From Candidatus Gastranaerophilales bacterium (GTDB lineage Bacteria; Cyanobacteriota; Vampirovibrionia; Gastranaerophilales; Gastranaerophilaceae): 24,000 bases of DNA. The notes under the pieces were generated by a model. That model did not search any database and was not told the origin of the DNA. It saw only the letters and a program-made list of their open reading frames with translations. The stretch covers positions 807,393 through 831,392 of the forward strand of contig CAJUJH010000001.1 of the NCBI GenBank assembly GCA_910586855.1, written 5' to 3'. How positions within the stretch are numbered: position 1 is the first letter of the stretch; every line of letters starts with the position of its first letter. Shown in pieces: positions 1 to 23,347 of this stretch. Position numbers and translations under genes: made by a program.

Positions 1-558
1 GAGAATTAAGCGCAGAAATACTCAATGGTGAATACTCACTTGCACCCTCAAGTCTTATTTGAAGAAAAGTATTGTTTGTTGCTTTTTTGTATTCTTCAAG
101 TGCTTTTTGCCTTTCTATTTCAAATGAGGTTATTGTTTTTTCGGGTGTAGATTCTTCGGCAGCACTTTCGTTATTTGCAGAATCACTTCCTGCAGGAGGT
201 GATGTTTTTATTTCAATATCTTTACCATCCTTATTTGTTACCATATTGATAAGATTTTTTGCCAGGGCAGCCAGTTGGTTTTCCTTGCCGGCAATTCCAA
301 CATTTTCACAAAATGCGACTATTTCTTCATCAGTGATATCTCCGTCTTTATTCACATCTAGTTCGCTTAAAATAACATTTATCTCTCTTGCATCCAGACC
401 ATCATTAAAGTTAAGATTCCAAGCGTCATTTTGATAATGTCCTTCAAGGGCGCTTATTGTTTTGTTTTCAAGTCCTTCTGTATTATATACGGAACTTTTT
501 TTATTATTTGATTATCCTGTAGATTAACAAATCCTGAAAGATTAATACCATTGTTCAT
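1..558 (-). CDS. EF-hand (Ca2+-binding loop) protein, 5' part. It runs off the left window edge and its reading frame is interrupted at an A7 tract.
   Basis: Not in the ORF track. On the minus strand, GGAG (rc of 568-571) lies 9 nt before the ATG at 558-556. That frame stops after 34 codons (TAA, rc of 454-456). The -1 frame is open from 511 to position 1 (>165 codons: ..SSVYNTEGLENKTISALEGHYQNDAWNLNFNDGLDAREINVILSELDVNKDGDITDEEIVAFCENVGIAGKENQ..). It contains a canonical 12-residue EF-hand loop, DVNKDGDITDEE (323-358). The two frames meet at T7/A7 (496-502). The plus-strand ORF 72-434 is its antisense shadow. Confidence 0.55.
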
Positions 559-594: not shown

Positions 595-609
595 GGGGGG
601 GGGGGGGGG
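595..609. repeat. Homopolymeric G15 (C15 on the minus strand), 36 nt upstream of the EF-hand gene ATG
   Basis: Direct count: 6 G at 595-600 plus 9 G at 601-609. On the minus strand it lies between TTGTGA-N17-TAAAGT (rc of 635-640 / 612-617) and GATAAT (rc of 589-594). Confidence 0.95.
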
Positions 610-769: not shown

Positions 770-3283
770 CTATTTTTGGTCACCGTAGGTTTCGTATCCT
801 TTTTTCTTCATTTCATCAATTACGGTGTCGTTGATGGCTTCATCAAGACCTTCGCCTTTATCGTTGAACCATCCACTGTACTCGCCTTCGTTGTTATAGT
901 TATCTTCATCTGGCGTGTCTACACCTTCCAGTGAGCCTTCACCAAATGTTGCACCACCAACCGCTTTTGCTAAATCTGCAGCATCATTAAGTTCTTGTTT
1001 AATGCGGTCATTAAATGCTTTTTCTTCATCTTTGTCAATCAATATGTCACCATTTCCGCCGTTTTTCTCTTTGAGCTCGGTTGCTTGTGTGTGAATTTTT
1101 TCGGCTAAATCATATACTGATTGCATTTTGTCATTTAATGGGTCATTGTATGCTTTTTCAACATCGGCTTCAGATAATTGAGAGAACATATTTGTACCCA
1201 TAACCGCATCGTTTTCAAGAGTTGCTGCTATGTAATCATCATCTTCCATTGCTTGTTCTGCAGTGAAGTTATTGCCGTTCATTGTTACATTAAACGTTGT
1301 TTGAACCTGAGTATTATTAATGTTGTATGAATCTTCATTATTTGTTGGTGTCAGGTCAATCTTTGTAATTCCTGCATCCCAGGCACTTATGAAGCTTTGT
1401 TGAACACTTACGGTTCCATCGCCGTTATCAATTTCTTTAAGCTGCATCATCATAATTCCGCTTAAAGCTTCTTCGCCTTCGATAACGTTTTGACCTTCAG
1501 GAATGCCGTATTTTGTGCGGAATCCTGCCATACCTTCATCGTTATCTGAACCTAGAAGGTCTGTAATGCCGTCATATGTGCCATTACCATCATCTGCCAT
1601 AAAGTATAATCTGCTATCACCGTTTTTAATAGATATCGGGTCTGATCTGCCTGTGTCATTAACATCATTTTGAGTGGTTTTTGTTGATTGGATAACCTGA
1701 GAATCCTCCCATTGACCACCTTTTCCTGTGAAGCTCTTGATTTTTTCTGCAAGAGGAGTGTAGCTTGGGTCTGAATTAAATCTTACGCCGCCTTGACCTT
1801 GTTCAAAATCTTTTTGTTCACCCAATGAATAACCTATATCAAGACCGGGGAAGAATTGGTCGAGAGTATACATTGCTTCTTTGAATGAGAATCCGCCTGC
1901 TGCAAGTTCATCAACAAGTTTCATTGCATTTGCCATATCTTTTTCATTGGCAGGAGCAGTGCTTACCTCAGGCATTCCTGCTGTATTGTTTGCAATAGAC
2001 ATCACTGCTGTAAATATTTCCGGACCTCTGCCTGTAATTGTTCTGCCGGCAGCAGTTCGTTCATCCGGTGTACCATGACCGTATGGTACGGTATAGTTTC
2101 CGTTACCATTATCTTTAATGCCTATTCCGCCAAATGCATCAGCCAATATAGACATTATTTCACTGTTTGTTGCGCCGTTTTCCGCTAATTGCCATACAAG
2201 GCTGCCTTCCTGAATGGTTGTAGCATCTTTTTTGTCTCCAAATAATGCAGTTTCTAATGCCTGCATCATAGTATTATCTTTGCCGTAAGCATATTGGTCG
2301 CCTGAACCATGGGTTGTATTACCTGCTAAATCTTTGATTTGTTGTGTTATATTTCCTATGTTGCCGTCATTTCTTGTAGCGGCTTTGCCATCATTTGTAA
2401 CTTGGTTGTTATCGTTTCTGTCATTTAAATCAATACCATATTTATCAGCAAGCTCAGCAATTTTTGTTTCTTTTTCATATGTGAAAACAGGAACCTTTGA
2501 ATCATTATTTGCGTTAGAATAATAATTGTTATTTTGAGCAGTCATATTGCCCTTTTGCTGATTTAATACATTAATAATGGCTGAGGCATTCTTTAAGCCT
2601 TTCATTGCATTATCGCTATCTGAAATACATCTGTCGATATCTACCATATATTTATTCAAAGTACTGTTTTCGTTACCCATATCTTGATATAATTTTGCAA
2701 TATCAGCAAGACTTGAGTCTCCACTCATAAGACTGTCCAGGCTCGCATTAAATGTTTCTTTAAATGTTGTATTAACGCCAGCTTGTCTGTTTCTTTTTGT
2801 TTTATCGACAGCATCCGTAATGGCTTGACTGATTGCACTTTGTAATTGCTTTTCATATTTATTTTGTCTGCCGATGATATCCATACTGATATCACCAATC
2901 TTATCGCCGGTTTCACCAATTTCTTTATTTATTTTTGCAAGCTCTGTTTCATATTCTTTAAGCTTTGCTTCCCATTTTTCAATTTCATCATTAATATTTT
3001 TAATTTGTTTATCGATATCATCTATTGCTTTTTGACCGCCATTATTGTAGGTTTCTGTTCCCCAAAGAGTAAAATCGCCTTTGCTGATATCAGCTAAACC
3101 TGAAGCTAAACCATCTTTTTCTTTCATCCAATCTTGTACTTGTTTTAGCATGTCTGCTTGTACGTTTTGTGTTTTTGAAATGTCAGTTGCCATCTTCTTT
3201 AAATCCTTTCGCACTTTATTAAATACTTTATTGTCTTTAATTTTGCTGTATATATCAAATATATACATAGTGTTTTTCGGCAT
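770..3283 (-). CDS. Large orphan acidic, Asn/Asp-rich protein with an N-terminal coiled-coil region; no recognisable signal peptide
   Basis: 837-codon ORF. The N-terminal ~180 aa show heptad-like charge patterns (DKQIKNINDEIEKWEAKLKEYETELAKINKEIGETGDKIG). The centre and C-terminus are rich in D/N/G, with Ca-loop-like stretches (MADDGNGTYDGITDLLGSDNDEG). The start is uncertain. The ATG at 3283 lies 6 nt after a hairpin. M31 (ATG, rc of 3191-3193) has GAAAGGA upstream. Confidence 0.8.
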   Translation of the reverse strand: MPKNTMYIFDIYSKIKDNKVFNKVRKDLKKMATDISKTQNVQADMLKQVQDWMKEKDGLASGLADISKGDFTLWGTETYNNGGQKAIDDIDKQIKNINDEIEKWEAKLKEYETELAKINKEIGETGDKIGDISMDIIGRQNKYEKQLQSAISQAITDAVDKTKRNRQAGVNTTFKETFNASLDSLMSGDSSLADIAKLYQDMGNENSTLNKYMVDIDRCISDSDNAMKGLKNASAIINVLNQQKGNMTAQNNNYYSNANNDSKVPVFTYEKETKIAELADKYGIDLNDRNDNNQVTNDGKAATRNDGNIGNITQQIKDLAGNTTHGSGDQYAYGKDNTMMQALETALFGDKKDATTIQEGSLVWQLAENGATNSEIMSILADAFGGIGIKDNGNGNYTVPYGHGTPDERTAAGRTITGRGPEIFTAVMSIANNTAGMPEVSTAPANEKDMANAMKLVDELAAGGFSFKEAMYTLDQFFPGLDIGYSLGEQKDFEQGQGGVRFNSDPSYTPLAEKIKSFTGKGGQWEDSQVIQSTKTTQNDVNDTGRSDPISIKNGDSRLYFMADDGNGTYDGITDLLGSDNDEGMAGFRTKYGIPEGQNVIEGEEALSGIMMMQLKEIDNGDGTVSVQQSFISAWDAGITKIDLTPTNNEDSYNINNTQVQTTFNVTMNGNNFTAEQAMEDDDYIAATLENDAVMGTNMFSQLSEADVEKAYNDPLNDKMQSVYDLAEKIHTQATELKEKNGGNGDILIDKDEEKAFNDRIKQELNDAADLAKAVGGATFGEGSLEGVDTPDEDNYNNEGEYSGWFNDKGEGLDEAINDTVIDEMKKKGYETYGDQK

Positions 3284-6924: not shown

Positions 6925-7704
6925 ATGCAAAGAAAAACTTATCTTCAATATTGTTTAAATAATAAAGGTAAAATTTCAAGGTGGATGTCAAATATGATGC
7001 CGCTTTCTTTTCATATTGCACCTTTTAGATGGTATAAATCCACCTCCCAATCTGATGCATATAAATATACGGGTCTTGTAATAGATGCACTTAATGCCTG
7101 GCAGAATGCTGCCGGTGGATGCATAGGTTTTAATGTAGTAAATGCTTTGATTGATTCCCACGTTAACCTTGAGTGGAAGCGTGTAGATAGAAAGTCATTA
7201 GGGCATTGTCAATTTCATTATGACCCAAACGGCAGATATTATTCAGCAGAAGTTAAAATAGGGCTGTCTGACGGTATTATTTGTAAAAAATATATGGATG
7301 AAGCTGAGGTTTATCATACTATCCTCCATGAAATCGGGCATGCCTTGGGTCTTGGGCACTCGCCTTATAAAGAAGATATTATGTACACTCCGCACCAATA
7401 TGGTATTGTAAAACTTTCTCAAAGAGATGTTCAAACTCTTCGCTGGCTTTATAAATTTGATATAGGAAAATCTCCTTCTGAAATTCTTGCTCAGTATCCA
7501 AATTCAGGAGCTAAGGATTTAGATGAACTTATTATGATATTATCCGGCGAGAAATCGGAATTTCAAAAAGTAAAAGACGGGCTTTCGTCTCGCCCGGGTA
7601 AAGATTTAATTCAAGAAAGCCAAAATATAGGCGACTTAAAAATGTATTTATTACAGGTTCATAATAATTTTGTTATACGAAAACCCGCTCCGCCAAAGGA
7701 ATAG
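6925..7704 (+). CDS. Matrixin-like metzincin zinc metalloprotease (peptidase M10-like); no signal peptide
   Basis: HEIGHALGLGHS (HExxHxxGxxH), then the Met-turn IMY, then LSQRDVQTLRWLY. The last matches the MMP-type L..DD..GIQ.LY motif. The start is uncertain. The ATG at 6925 has TGTTATAAT (6906-6914) 10 nt upstream and no SD. An internal ATG-ATG near 6993 follows AAGGTGG. Confidence 0.8.
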   Translation: MQRKTYLQYCLNNKGKISRWMSNMMPLSFHIAPFRWYKSTSQSDAYKYTGLVIDALNAWQNAAGGCIGFNVVNALIDSHVNLEWKRVDRKSLGHCQFHYDPNGRYYSAEVKIGLSDGIICKKYMDEAEVYHTILHEIGHALGLGHSPYKEDIMYTPHQYGIVKLSQRDVQTLRWLYKFDIGKSPSEILAQYPNSGAKDLDELIMILSGEKSEFQKVKDGLSSRPGKDLIQESQNIGDLKMYLLQVHNNFVIRKPAPPKE

Positions 7705-8113: not shown

Positions 8114-11100
8114 ATGAAAATTGTTTATCTAAAGCCTTTTAAAAGGTTACGTTCTTTTGCTGTACAAAAATTACAGTTTATATCTAAGGTGAAAAATCAA
8201 GGTCGCAGAGTGCAATTTATTGTATCGACATTGAAATTAGGATTAAGAAAATCCTTTGCCTTCTCCCTTGTTGAAATGCTTATGGCATTATTGGTAGCAT
8301 CGCTGCTTTTAGCAGCGCTTGCCCCTGTAATGACAAAGAGGATGACAGATAATGAAGTAAAAATAATATCAGAAGCAGCTAATTATGATAAAGATAGCGT
8401 AATAACTATTTTTACAGATGCATCTGAACAAAAAGAATTTAATATACCAACAGATGCAAGCAGAATAACATTAACAGCAGTAGGTGCAGGCGGTGCAGGC
8501 GGTAATGCATTATACGGTAATAAAGAATTTACAACAAGCGGAACATTTACCATACCAAACGATGTTAACAAGATAAGAGTATTTATGGTAGGTGCGGGAG
8601 GAGGCGGAGCTTCCGGAGGTATGGGAAATGGTATGGCATACGCTAATGTCCCTGCAATAGGAGCTGTTGAAACAACACTTACAAATGCCGGTACATATAC
8701 ACTTTCAGATGTTGTTACCATTCCAAATACATATACAGCACCTGTTCTAAATTCTTATTGTGATAAATTCAGTGCATTAAAAAAATGGGTAATGAAATCA
8801 AATACCTCAACACAAATAAATCCTGGAGCCAAAATTTCAAAAATTGATGGCAGTGCAATTGTCACATTTAATAAATTTACTGCATGCGGCGGAGGCGGAG
8901 GCGGGGGATATACTTCAGGCGGTATTGGTGCAAGCGGAGGAGGTTCTGGCGGATATGTAACAAATCAAACATTAGCCGCATCTGCTGCTGCCTCTGGTAT
9001 TAAATTTATAGTAGGTGCTGGTGGTAGTGGTGCGTTGCAAGCAAGCTATGGTCAGGGAGGTCCCGGCGGTGGCACGGGAGGTGCAGAAGGCGGAGGCAGG
9101 GGTGTACCTCAAGGTGGTCAGAATGGGACTAACGGTTCTGGCGGTCGCGGAGGTTATAGAACATACTCTGATATGTCAGGGGCACATGGGTTTTCGGGTT
9201 TTGGCGGCGGAGGTGGTGGCGGAACTGCAATATTATCTGACACAAGTGCAATTGCAGAAATTGGCGGCGGAGGTGGCGGTGCTGGTGGAACATGGGGTAG
9301 AAGTGATGGAACCATTTCTTCCAGCTTTATTTCTGGTGCTGGCGGCGGAGGCGGTGGACGTGGTGCTGGCGGCGGAGGCGGTTCATTAAGACTGCAAATG
9401 GTGAACGTTGGGTGTCAGGGACGTTCCGGTACAACAGGCGGTAATAATGGTAGTAGGGGTCTATGTGGTTTTGCACCCGATGATGGTGGTAGATATCCTG
9501 AACAGCAAGGCGGTGCAGGGTATGATGGTGGTGGCGGAGGCGGTGGAGGGGCATATTTAGATACCCCCTCTACAGAAGGGAGAACATGTACTGTGGCTAA
9601 TGGGTCTACGACATCAAGCGGTGCTGGTGGAGGTGGCGGTGGATTTACCTCACGAACCTATCCTGATGTTAGCCACGCATTTGGCGGTGGAGGGGGCGGG
9701 GGAAAAGGCGGACGCGGGGGAACCGGCGGTCCAGGCGGAGGTATTGGTGGCTCAATATCTACCATCTTTGGAAGCAGTAACTGCAATGGAGGCGATTCTG
9801 GAGTTGACGGTAAACCCGGTGCTATGCGTGTATGGTATTCTATTGCAGGTGTTACCAACGGTCTTCAGTGTGCATATTCTACCCAATCAAATGGCGGAGG
9901 CGGAGGTGGTGCAGGTCAAGTATGGATGGGTGAAATTAATGTAACGCCGGGGCAGACTATTACATTAAACATAGGACAAGGCGGTGCTGCTCAAAATATC
10001 GGCGGAGAAAACGGAAACGACGGTACACCAACAAGTATTGTTGTTAATGGTAATACATATTCTGTATCAGGCGGAAAAGGCGGAAAGTTTGAAAACGATA
10101 ATACATATATAGCTAATTCAGGAGGTCTTGGCGGCGGAATAAAAACCACTAATTATAGTTCTTCTGCTATATATAAAGATTGGCTTAAATTAAATGAAAA
10201 AGGAATAACTCTAACAGGAGGAAATAACGGCGGACAAGGATATCTAAAAACAGACAGTGAAAGCAGTGCAGGCGGAAATGGCGGAAGTGCATTAAAAATG
10301 GATGGTACTTATGCTGCAGGCGGTGTTGGCGGAGCTGCAGTTACCGGTGGTGCTAATTCAACAAATTATGGTACAGGCGGAGGCGGAGGAGGAGCAGGTA
10401 CTGATGGAACATTTGGAAACGGAGGCAGAGGTGCTAACGGATATATATACATTGAATGGGGTGGAACAAACGGAGGCGGAGGAACAAATGGTGAAATTGT
10501 TCAAAGAATACTTACCAACTTTGATATGAATGATAGAAAGATGTTAATAAATATTGGAAAAGGCGGAAGTAATTCATCAGGTGATGGTAATGGAGGCAAT
10601 ACAACAATTTCTGTTAAATCCGGAGGAAAAAACGTTGTTGTTACAGCAAGAGGAGGTATTAAAGGAAACATTGGCACATCTGACGCCAATACCCATGGAG
10701 CAGAAATGATATTTCCATCTGACTACAATAACCTATACAAGGACTTTGTTCAAAACAATCTGAATATTATTAACGGACAAAAAGGAATAAATGATTATGG
10801 CGGTATGGGCGGATATCTGGCTTGTATATATTATTCAAAGGACAAAGACGGTAACAGAGTATGCAATACATCTGTTGATTCCAATGATGGAGTTGAAGAA
10901 ACAGCAGGACCAACAAGACCCGGATGCGGAGGAAGCGCTATACCATCTCCGCTATATGAAGCCATCTGTAATGCTAAATCAACATCGGTATCTGCTGATG
11001 GAGGTAATGGAACCTTTGGCGGCGGAGGCGGCGGCGGAGCAGTATTAAACAGAATGGGAGGCAAAGGAGGCAATGGCGGCAATGGCTTTGTAATTCTTGA

Positions 11101-11119
11101 ATACAAGAGTGTACAATAG
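8114..11119 (+). CDS. Giant glycine-rich protein with a prepilin-type (class III) N-terminal signal and multiple glycine-rich, tail-fibre-like modules
   Basis: 1001 aa, with GGAG 9 nt upstream. The motif RKSFA|FSLVEMLMALLVASLLLAALAPV (8258-8329) fits [GAS]|[FM]xxxE with Glu at +5, followed by a hydrophobic helix. The rest repeats a beta-strand followed by a Gly run (ITLTAVGAGGAGG, IRVFMVGAGGGGASGG, KFTACGGGGGGG, IKFIVGAGGSGA, VTPGQTITLNIGQGGAA, GYIYIEWGG, GFVILEYK). Gly runs reach 7-8 residues. The leader is long (49 aa). Alternative starts at GTG (V33) or TTG (L40) are possible. Confidence 0.85.
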   Translation: MKIVYLKPFKRLRSFAVQKLQFISKVKNQGRRVQFIVSTLKLGLRKSFAFSLVEMLMALLVASLLLAALAPVMTKRMTDNEVKIISEAANYDKDSVITIFTDASEQKEFNIPTDASRITLTAVGAGGAGGNALYGNKEFTTSGTFTIPNDVNKIRVFMVGAGGGGASGGMGNGMAYANVPAIGAVETTLTNAGTYTLSDVVTIPNTYTAPVLNSYCDKFSALKKWVMKSNTSTQINPGAKISKIDGSAIVTFNKFTACGGGGGGGYTSGGIGASGGGSGGYVTNQTLAASAAASGIKFIVGAGGSGALQASYGQGGPGGGTGGAEGGGRGVPQGGQNGTNGSGGRGGYRTYSDMSGAHGFSGFGGGGGGGTAILSDTSAIAEIGGGGGGAGGTWGRSDGTISSSFISGAGGGGGGRGAGGGGGSLRLQMVNVGCQGRSGTTGGNNGSRGLCGFAPDDGGRYPEQQGGAGYDGGGGGGGGAYLDTPSTEGRTCTVANGSTTSSGAGGGGGGFTSRTYPDVSHAFGGGGGGGKGGRGGTGGPGGGIGGSISTIFGSSNCNGGDSGVDGKPGAMRVWYSIAGVTNGLQCAYSTQSNGGGGGGAGQVWMGEINVTPGQTITLNIGQGGAAQNIGGENGNDGTPTSIVVNGNTYSVSGGKGGKFENDNTYIANSGGLGGGIKTTNYSSSAIYKDWLKLNEKGITLTGGNNGGQGYLKTDSESSAGGNGGSALKMDGTYAAGGVGGAAVTGGANSTNYGTGGGGGGAGTDGTFGNGGRGANGYIYIEWGGTNGGGGTNGEIVQRILTNFDMNDRKMLINIGKGGSNSSGDGNGGNTTISVKSGGKNVVVTARGGIKGNIGTSDANTHGAEMIFPSDYNNLYKDFVQNNLNIINGQKGINDYGGMGGYLACIYYSKDKDGNRVCNTSVDSNDGVEETAGPTRPGCGGSAIPSPLYEAICNAKSTSVSADGGNGTFGGGGGGGAVLNRMGGKGGNGGNGFVILEYKSVQ

Positions 11120-22363: not shown

Positions 22364-23347
22364 ATGGTTAGTTTAATTTCATCCATTAAGGCAAACATAG
22401 TTAACAATTATAAAAATGCAGAACCTTTAAAAACTGCATCAAAAGCTAATGAAGCAAATCTGTTTGGTTTAAAAAATAGTGAAGAAAATGCTCTTTTTGA
22501 ACTAAACTTTGATGAAACCATTACCCCTCAGGCGCCTAAATATAAAGCTGGAAATTATGGTAATTTTACAAAGCATGCAGGTAATGGCAAGTTTGATGCT
22601 GATGCAATACAGGGGCAAATTGGTGACTGCGGCTTGCTATCTACCTTGCGCGCATTAAGAAACTCTGAAGGCGGTCAAAAAGCTGTTGGTGAAATAATGA
22701 GCTATTCTGCAGATACCGGCGAATGGAGTTTTAATTTTAAAACCAAAGATTTTGATGGTACAAATCCTATTGTTGTAACTCAAGCTGAAATTGACCAGGC
22801 TATAGCTGAAAAAAGAGTAAGTAAGGGCGATGATGATATTACGGCAATGGAACTTGCGGTAGAAAAGTATTTACAGCAAATTGGCGATAATGGCACACAG
22901 GATAATACGGTAAAACAAATATTTGATATACAAAATAAGAGTAGAAATGCAAGAATTGCAGCCGGTGCTGAAGATAAGGGCTATTTAGATGGTATATCAC
23001 CCTATATCGGCTATATATTTACAGGAAGTATTCCAAAACCATTGCATACCTATGATTCAAATCAGCAGCTTGCTGCAGAAGCTCTTGAAAGCTTTGATAA
23101 ATCTACAGATATGTTGATTTTTTCTCAAATACAATCAGGCGATGTAGCGAGTGGAGGAGATAACCCCTTCCTTATGCTGGGTGATGACCAGATTCTTGGT
23201 AATCATGCCTATACGGTTTGTGATGTTGAAGGCGATAATGTAATTCTTAGAGAATCAAATAACCCTTCTGAAACAATAACCGTAACTAAAGAAGAACTTC
23301 TAAACTGTGAGGGTAAAAACTCATTGTATGTATATTCTGCTAAATAA
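22364..23347 (+). CDS. Calpain-like (peptidase C2-like) cysteine protease; no signal peptide
   Basis: 327 aa, with GGAG 7 nt upstream. The catalytic-Cys motif IQGQIGDCGLLSTLRAL matches calpain QGxLGDCWLL. The His motif is LGNHAYTV (calpain GHAYSV). The Asn region is ILRESNNP (calpain LRNPWG). Confidence 0.65.
   Translation: MVSLISSIKANIVNNYKNAEPLKTASKANEANLFGLKNSEENALFELNFDETITPQAPKYKAGNYGNFTKHAGNGKFDADAIQGQIGDCGLLSTLRALRNSEGGQKAVGEIMSYSADTGEWSFNFKTKDFDGTNPIVVTQAEIDQAIAEKRVSKGDDDITAMELAVEKYLQQIGDNGTQDNTVKQIFDIQNKSRNARIAAGAEDKGYLDGISPYIGYIFTGSIPKPLHTYDSNQQLAAEALESFDKSTDMLIFSQIQSGDVASGGDNPFLMLGDDQILGNHAYTVCDVEGDNVILRESNNPSETITVTKEELLNCEGKNSLYVYSAK

Follow-up and report, generated by a model that had tools for sequence, protein, structure and literature searches.

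Frame changes at adenine-rich sequences are known from several kinds of genetic system. Escherichia coli dnaX is the familiar example of programmed −1 frameshifting at a slippery heptamer of the X_XXY_YYZ pattern, in this case A_AAA_AAG. Heptamers that lack a stimulatory element raise frameshifting 2- to 10-fold over a background of 0.055% in a controlled E. coli reporter (PMC4066793). In the pDEST17 vector, however, the sequence C-AAA-AAA gives 25-60% −1 frameshifting when overexpressed in E. coli (PMC1851650), and full-length protein is still obtained from one-base-deletion constructs through slippage of ribosomes, with no stimulator designed in (PMC1851650). A frame can also be restored by transcriptional slippage, which is efficient in bacteria at runs of ~9 (PMC5009743), and a concept termed ‘savior indel plus compensatory frameshifting’ has been described (PMC5009743). 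Finally, homopolymers can set the frame through slipped-strand phase variation, and bacterial contingency and surface-protein loci can carry polymorphic loss-of-function alleles.

Here we examine a frame break at a run of seven adenines (A7) in a stretch of 24,000 nucleotides (hereafter ‘the window’) from a mouse-gut Gastranaerophilales (Melainabacteria) species, whose nearest GTDB genomes are MGBC MAGs with RecF identities of 82-92%. An earlier note on this DNA had joined two open reading frames at the A7 tract into one EF-hand gene and had offered three readings of the break: a homopolymer sequencing error, a second slipped-strand ON/OFF switch beside a poly-C tract, or programmed ribosomal or transcriptional slippage. 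The joining of the frames into one gene holds, whereas the explanation that fits best, a plain loss-of-function allele, was absent from that list. We estimate a probability of about three in four that the A7 break is a genuine, heritable and recent null allele, created by a one-base deletion in a strain-variable orphan gene.

Two reading frames of one gene meet at an A7 tract

The features of the locus, in the order in which they are read on the minus strand, are as follows.

722 to 755, no strand assigned: 13-bp hairpin terminator of an upstream gene for an 837-aa protein, marking a separate transcription unit
595 to 609, minus strand: poly-C15 tract (G15 on the plus strand), upstream of the Shine-Dalgarno sequence and polymorphic in length among strains
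571 to 568, minus strand: Shine-Dalgarno sequence GGAG, read directly, with a spacing of 9 nt to the ATG at 558-556
454 to 558, minus strand: stub ORF of 34 codons in the zero frame, from the ATG at 558-556 to a TAA at 456-454, the product of the frameshifted allele
515 to 518, minus strand: AGGA, Shine-Dalgarno-like, 12 nt upstream of the heptamer and only 4 nt long
512 to 514, minus strand: TAA ahead of the A tract, the upstream limit of the long frame, located by frame reading
496 to 502, minus strand: A7 run (T7 on the plus strand), the junction of both frames, A_AAA_AAA in the zero frame
1 to 511, minus strand: long frame, which reaches the window edge at position 1
323 to 358, minus strand: EF-hand-like loop of 12 residues, DVNKDGDITDEE, with sub-threshold Pfam EF-hand matches

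The gene lies between the 837-aa gene and the convergent recF. Because the hairpin at 722-755 ends the 837-aa gene, the EF-hand-like gene forms its own transcription unit. Frame reading reproduced the arrangement described earlier: the Shine-Dalgarno sequence, which is the same in every allele compared, and the ATG at 558 open a frame of 34 codons with the translation MNNGINLSGFVNLQDNQIIKKVPYIIQKDLKTKQ, and the long frame, shut by the TAA at 512-514, has no start of its own. The two meet by a single base at 496-502, and relatives with one more base are in frame from the same ATG. The stub and the long frame are thus parts of one gene, joined at the A tract with a difference of a single base, as these in-frame relatives confirm. 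The long frame corresponds to codons 22-186 of an ancestral gene of 309 codons, which could be rebuilt in full from locus L003.

Read in the zero frame, the tract gives AT A_AAA_AAA GTT, so that the heptamer indeed lies in X_XXY_YYZ phase, as the earlier note had observed. Either a −1 shift or one extra A at the tract would give ..NQIIKKSSVYNTE... The trans-frame peptide expected from a −1 shift is ..NQIIKKSSVYNTEGLENK.., and the peptide SSVYNTEGLENK, or any peptide from the long frame, would point to such shifting.

The long frame was scanned for ATG, GTG and TTG, and none lies ahead of the GTG at 355-353. That codon sits within the EF-hand-like loop and has no Shine-Dalgarno sequence. As an internal start, which is the choice of gene callers, it was rejected on these grounds, given that it would split the loop. 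Reinitiation past the TAA of the stub was also rejected, because no neighbouring ATG or TTG lies in the frame required. The possibility raised earlier that the long frame starts independently finds no backing among the alleles, none of which supplies a start codon for it.

A lineage-restricted protein with an EF-hand-like loop

The EF-hand label comes from one canonical loop of 12 residues, DVNKDGDITDEE, which by inspection conforms to D-x-[DNS]-x-[DNS]-G-x-[ILV]-x-x-x-E; Pfam matches fall below threshold (EF-hand_1, 17.6 bits versus a cutoff of 25.4). Besides this single EF-hand-like loop, the protein has a C-terminal domain in one or two copies, and it is probably exposed or secreted. Copy number of the domain is one in the 309-codon gene of L003 and two in a 486-aa version (L044), and three tandem copies occur in a sister species (L013, 6119-7400), where a poly-C run adjoins a scaffold gap. 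The ratio dN/dS between alleles is 0.2-0.3 (pairs involving L037 were left out, being mis-aligned owing to an internal stop), which identifies a genuine protein-coding gene that has been under purifying selection in the past. Within the A7 lineage the allele is of such recent origin that dN/dS carries no information.

In most sister species the gene is missing and the 837-aa gene abuts recF, and the gene is therefore lineage-restricted. Homology searches with the repaired protein recovered two clusters only. A protein scan of the GTDB species genomes, in which the window's own region may be masked, gave no match, and a phmmer search of 1.8 billion representatives returned same-species fragments and generic EF-hand repeats, with no diverged orthologue. 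Scans of the window for tRNAs and Rfam families were empty.

Strains differ unusually strongly in the neighbouring 837-aa gene (770-3283, minus strand), with ~91% nucleotide identity and dS of 0.15-0.30, and this suggests that the entire neighbourhood is a fast-evolving region. On the other side of the EF-hand-like gene, recF and pfkB are ~97% identical between strains. Elsewhere in the window, positions 8114-11119 (plus strand) encode a glycine-rich protein of 1001 aa (Pfam Gly_rich_2) whose N terminus bears a prepilin methylation motif (Pfam N_methyl), and the core of its gene has 54% GC in a genome of 33% GC. Two further proteins, encoded at 22364-23347 and 6925-7704 (both plus strand), have no obvious signal peptide; one is weakly calpain-like (Peptidase_C2) and the other is a matrixin-like zinc metalloprotease (HEIGHALGLGH).

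The A7 allele recurs across independent assemblies

Homopolymers are error-prone, and one base suffices to produce the break. An error of sequencing or assembly in the window, with a true genome that is in frame, was therefore an obvious reading to consider. The exact 34-aa stub peptide, however, was found on 112 contigs (NCBI, JGI/IMG, Logan, ENA and MetaClust). Four further variants with a single substitution all retain ..IIKKVPYII.., which brings the A7 reading to 116 contigs. The truncated product called from the GTG (P0003) occurs on 195 contigs and in 410 index blocks, of which 11 include contigs >1 Mb; 15 of the 19 members of the protein cluster were covered. The same A7 is present in L001 (Logan), L003 (JGI), L008 and L009, and the 34-codon stub is also seen in the first two. 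Across the site, L008 (on a 1.0-Mb contig) and L009 (SPAdes, 808 kb) match the window letter for letter.

These sources represent independent samples, pipelines and assemblers, including SPAdes short-read assemblies, Logan, JGI and megabase contigs. Moreover, the conserved genes of the window are all intact, which speaks against a general problem with homopolymer errors. The recurrence of one identical allele on >100 independent contigs, some of 0.8 to >1 Mb, excludes a sequencing or assembly artefact, and we consider this first of the earlier readings refuted and its chances negligible. The A7 allele is in fact the most frequently assembled allele of the gene, with its downstream 288 codons still intact, although the contigs that carry it may largely represent one clone spread among laboratory mice.

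In-frame alleles and independent lesions in other strains

Within the species, all alleles share one Shine-Dalgarno sequence and one ATG, and two in-frame versions of the site are found. The first, CAA ATA ATC AAG AAA GAT TCC (..QIIKKDS..), contains no homopolymer and is carried by L044, L045, L038-43, L004 and L005. The second, CAA ATA ATT AAA AAA AGT TCC (..QIIKKSS..), is carried by L002, L006, L007, L037 and L048-53. The window version, CAA ATA ATA AAA AAA GTT CC, equals the second version less one base. The earlier note had proposed to see whether orthologues carry A8 in frame. The relatives are one base longer and in frame from the same ATG; at the site, however, they have either T plus A7 or the non-homopolymeric ATCAAGAAAGAT, and none has A8.

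Intact alleles of the whole gene also exist. A protein of 486 aa with two copies of the C-terminal domain (P0043) is found on 77 contigs and in 140 blocks. In GCA_948691935.1 (L044) code 11 yields it without interruption; codon 47 is TGG there and the upstream tract is C14. A protein of 309 aa (P0045, from L045) is likewise intact under code 11. The frameshift is the derived state, intact alleles exist and no alternative start lies ahead of the GTG at 355-353, all of which is expected of a loss-of-function allele.

The A7 deletion is one of several independent lesions in this gene. The others are listed below.

Q17 to TAA, in L037
E28 to TAA together with W47 to TGA and indels, in L002 and, from several samples, L048-53
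W47 to TGA, in L038-43, L046 and L047, and the sole lesion in L038-41, L046 and L047
W47 to TGA together with a 5-nt duplication, in L006 and L007
84-nt 3′ deletion with loss of the stop and of the 31 codons ahead of it, in L001, L004, L005, L042, L043 and L048

The 84-nt deletion is found on several different 5′ allele backgrounds, and the ORF that it creates reads across the terminator hairpin and continues antisense to recF.

Several of these lesions involve TGA, and some public pipelines read TGA47 of this gene as tryptophan. The stops of 20 window genes comprise 13 TAA, seven TAG and no TGA. TGA stops number ~2 in 60 genes in the genus and are normal in more distant Gastranaerophilales (L010-L032). 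Within the window, no in-frame TGA occurs in 6551 codons and every tryptophan codon is TGG. Reassignment of TGA to tryptophan (code 4) was rejected because of this lack of in-frame TGA, the exclusive use of TGG and the fact that TGA terminates genes in the genus and family; we regard TGA as a rare stop in this organism. If this rejection were wrong, the alleles that carry only TGA47 would be intact, the deletion and the Q17 and E28 stop lesions would stand and the verdict on A7 would be unchanged.

From nucleotide 170 to the end of the gene, the window allele does not differ from the intact L045. L045 and L008 differ at eight positions within a 27-nt patch around the site (nucleotides 39-65), plus nucleotide 169. 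Since the differences are confined in this way, 5′ modules are swapped by recombination, and as judged from these sequences the pattern is a mosaic of the 5′ end generated by recombination or gene conversion. A diversity-generating retroelement was considered as the source of the patch and rejected, because the substitutions are not adenine-specific. The identity from nucleotide 170 onwards also indicates that the frameshift is recent, and consequently the intact downstream ORF says nothing about function.

The poly-C tract varies in length and the A tract does not

The second of the earlier readings holds that A7 (OFF) and A8 (ON) interconvert by reversible slipped-strand phase variation, which would create a second switch beside the poly-C tract. 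Several observations make this attractive. Adding a single A would bring back precisely the ..IIKKSS.. protein that the sister alleles encode, the locus resembles a contingency locus in its behaviour, and one hypervariable tract, the poly-C run, is already present in the gene. The length of this tract is 10, 11, 12, 13, 14, 15 or 16 across assemblies, interrupted forms (C6AC9 and C9T/C10T) occur among the loci examined (the window, L002, L008, L009 and L037-L050), and numerous short-read contigs begin or break off within it. The lengths that we observe are consistent with a hypermutable promoter-region tract.

The A tract offers a different picture. No consensus with A8 or A6 was found in any locus or assembly examined, these being consensus sequences in which minority A8 cells could be hidden. 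The repaired (A8) protein of 309 aa is missing from a collection of 15 billion proteins, as against 116 contigs for the A7 stub. The in-frame relatives carry T plus A7 or a non-homopolymeric sequence, and the one route of restoration that was observed is recombination of the 5′ module. Seven adenines are also below the usual length of phase-varying tracts. With the length of the A tract invariant and that of the poly-C tract ranging from 10 to 16, the G/C tract acts like a mutable switch, whereas the A tract does not. We thus find the evidence unfavourable to a second switch and regard this reading as improbable.

The slippery heptamer lacks a downstream structure and a conserved setting

The third of the earlier readings was programmed slippage. 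Folding of the 80 nt downstream of the site gave a minimum free energy of −7.5 kcal/mol versus a mean of −8.5 kcal/mol for shuffled sequences (z = +0.4), and 129 of 200 shuffles fold equally well. No stimulatory stem-loop or pseudoknot was found by this folding, and the addition of flanks left the result unchanged. Nor is the arrangement conserved, given that other alleles form a single ORF and that the gene is missing from sister species. Tracts of at least seven A or seven T number 21 in the 24-kb window, and A_AAA_AAA is found in frame six times in 20 ordinary window genes, including ybaB and rpsD; an A7 run is common in this genome of 33% GC. The one-base deletion by itself creates A_AAA_AAA in slippery phase, which means that selection did not produce the motif. 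Programmed slippage thus goes unsupported, as the site has no stimulatory structure and no conserved arrangement and its heptamer is a by-product of the deletion.

A weaker version of the same idea is that frameshifting at A7 is leaky and functionally maintained. A −1 slip of the ribosome, or addition of an A by RNA polymerase, would then provide a low but useful amount of full-length protein, and the A7 allele would be a down-tuned gene of the ‘savior indel plus compensatory frameshifting’ type and not a null. The heptamer is in perfect X_XXY_YYZ phase with AGGA 12 nt upstream, AAA-AAA is intrinsically shifty in E. coli (25-60% in overexpression; PMC1851650), and the allele is common with its downstream ORF intact, as a functional recoded gene would appear. 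Other observations weigh against it. The AGGA at 518-515 is unchanged in the in-frame L006 and L037, and is therefore older than the deletion; it is missing from L044 and L045, which are intact and carry ATC AAG AAA GAT. Unstimulated heptamers reach only ~2- to 10-fold over 0.055% (PMC4066793), the site has no downstream structure (z = +0.4), and ordinary genes of the window hold the heptamer in frame just as well on six occasions. Rescue by transcriptional slippage needs runs of ~9 or more (PMC5009743), and the run here is seven. The allele is too young for its intact downstream ORF to be informative, and other strains use TAA codons and deletions, which makes loss of function a common outcome. 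On balance, maintained leaky expression seems unlikely.

Even so, a small fraction of ribosomes may slip −1 at A7 and produce the full-length protein, and if the C-AAA-AAA figures are a guide, ‘null’ may be an overstatement for this allele. We also entertained, as a rather remote prospect, the idea that selection favours A7 as a ‘dimmed’ allele, whose spontaneous −1 slippage would supply a trickle of full-length protein and, together with the poly-C switch of the promoter region, would allow multi-level expression of an exposed protein. If true, no contingency-type locus would have been described before in Melainabacteria, and the combination of slippage in replication with slippage in translation would likewise be a first.

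A proposed origin for the frameshifted allele

We favour loss of function by a recent deletion, which could have come about as follows. The ancestral gene is a single ORF that starts at the ATG at 558. In one family of alleles, synonymous and nearby changes would have converted ATC AAG AAA GAT to ATT AAA AAA AGT. Loss of the T would then give ATA AAA AAA GTT, and an equivalent path would be a T-to-A change that makes A8, shortened afterwards to A7. Translation of the window allele from its Shine-Dalgarno sequence and ATG is predicted to stop after 34 codons. Since the other 288 codons lack a start of their own, the allele would be essentially null, and no full-length protein is expected to be made from it. 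The A_AAA_AAA in slippery phase would be an accident of the deletion, and nothing points to selection for slippage.

A7 is one among several independent knockouts of the gene, at a locus that also shows a hypervariable poly-C tract in the promoter region, a varying number of C-terminal repeats and mosaic recombination. The pattern is that of a contingency-type protein whose loss is tolerated or favoured, and selection may have promoted such losses. The variability of the poly-C tract, the independent knockouts, the variation in repeat number and the mosaic 5′ modules together hint, if modestly, at contingency-like loci in uncultured gut Melainabacteria that are under pressure from the host or from phage.

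For annotation, the locus is best recorded as a frameshifted allele (pseudogene) of a gene for a 309- or 486-aa protein, and neither as a recoding site nor as two genes. A more general caution also follows. A one-base deletion beside a pair of lysine codons automatically yields a slippery heptamer, and the motif alone is no evidence of programming.

Comparison with known systems

Of the systems considered, E. coli dnaX is the one that the heptamer itself calls to mind. Both sites are A-rich, follow X_XXY_YYZ and place tRNA-Lys in both ribosomal sites, and the AGGA in the window lies 12 nt upstream, about the right distance for a Shine-Dalgarno-like element, which is expected at 10-14 nt. Unlike dnaX, however, the site described here has no downstream stem-loop and ends in A and not G. 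It is also not conserved, since other alleles are in frame with ATC AAG AAA GAT, and a shift would be needed for the sole useful product and not for a second, shorter one. The attB1 C-AAA-AAA of pDEST17 (Belfield et al. 2007, PMC1851650) is similar in having an AAA-AAA lysine pair ~20 codons into an ORF, but its figures come from T7 overexpression in E. coli, which is another organism and another site.

Slipped-strand systems, such as the poly-G/C tracts of Neisseria, Haemophilus and Campylobacter and the poly-A tracts of Mycoplasma, share with this locus an early coding homopolymer that sets the frame, and the gene studied here also has a length-variable poly-C tract upstream. In contrast to those systems, its A tract is only seven long and is invariant in >100 assemblies. 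The rescue by transcriptional slippage seen in Buchnera and Blochmannia, and Thermus dnaX, likewise involve a poly(A) run at the frame break, but those runs are ~9 or more (PMC5009743) and this one is seven.

The closest likeness is to the polymorphic loss-of-function alleles of bacterial contingency and surface-protein loci. As in those cases, a derived 1-nt deletion lies near the 5′ end of the gene, intact alleles persist in other strains alongside several independent lesions, and a hypervariable homopolymer, variation in repeat number and mosaic recombination are found close by. What sets the present example apart from that class is its setting in an orphan gene of an uncultured Melainabacteria gut commensal, and a deletion that happens to create a canonical slippery heptamer.
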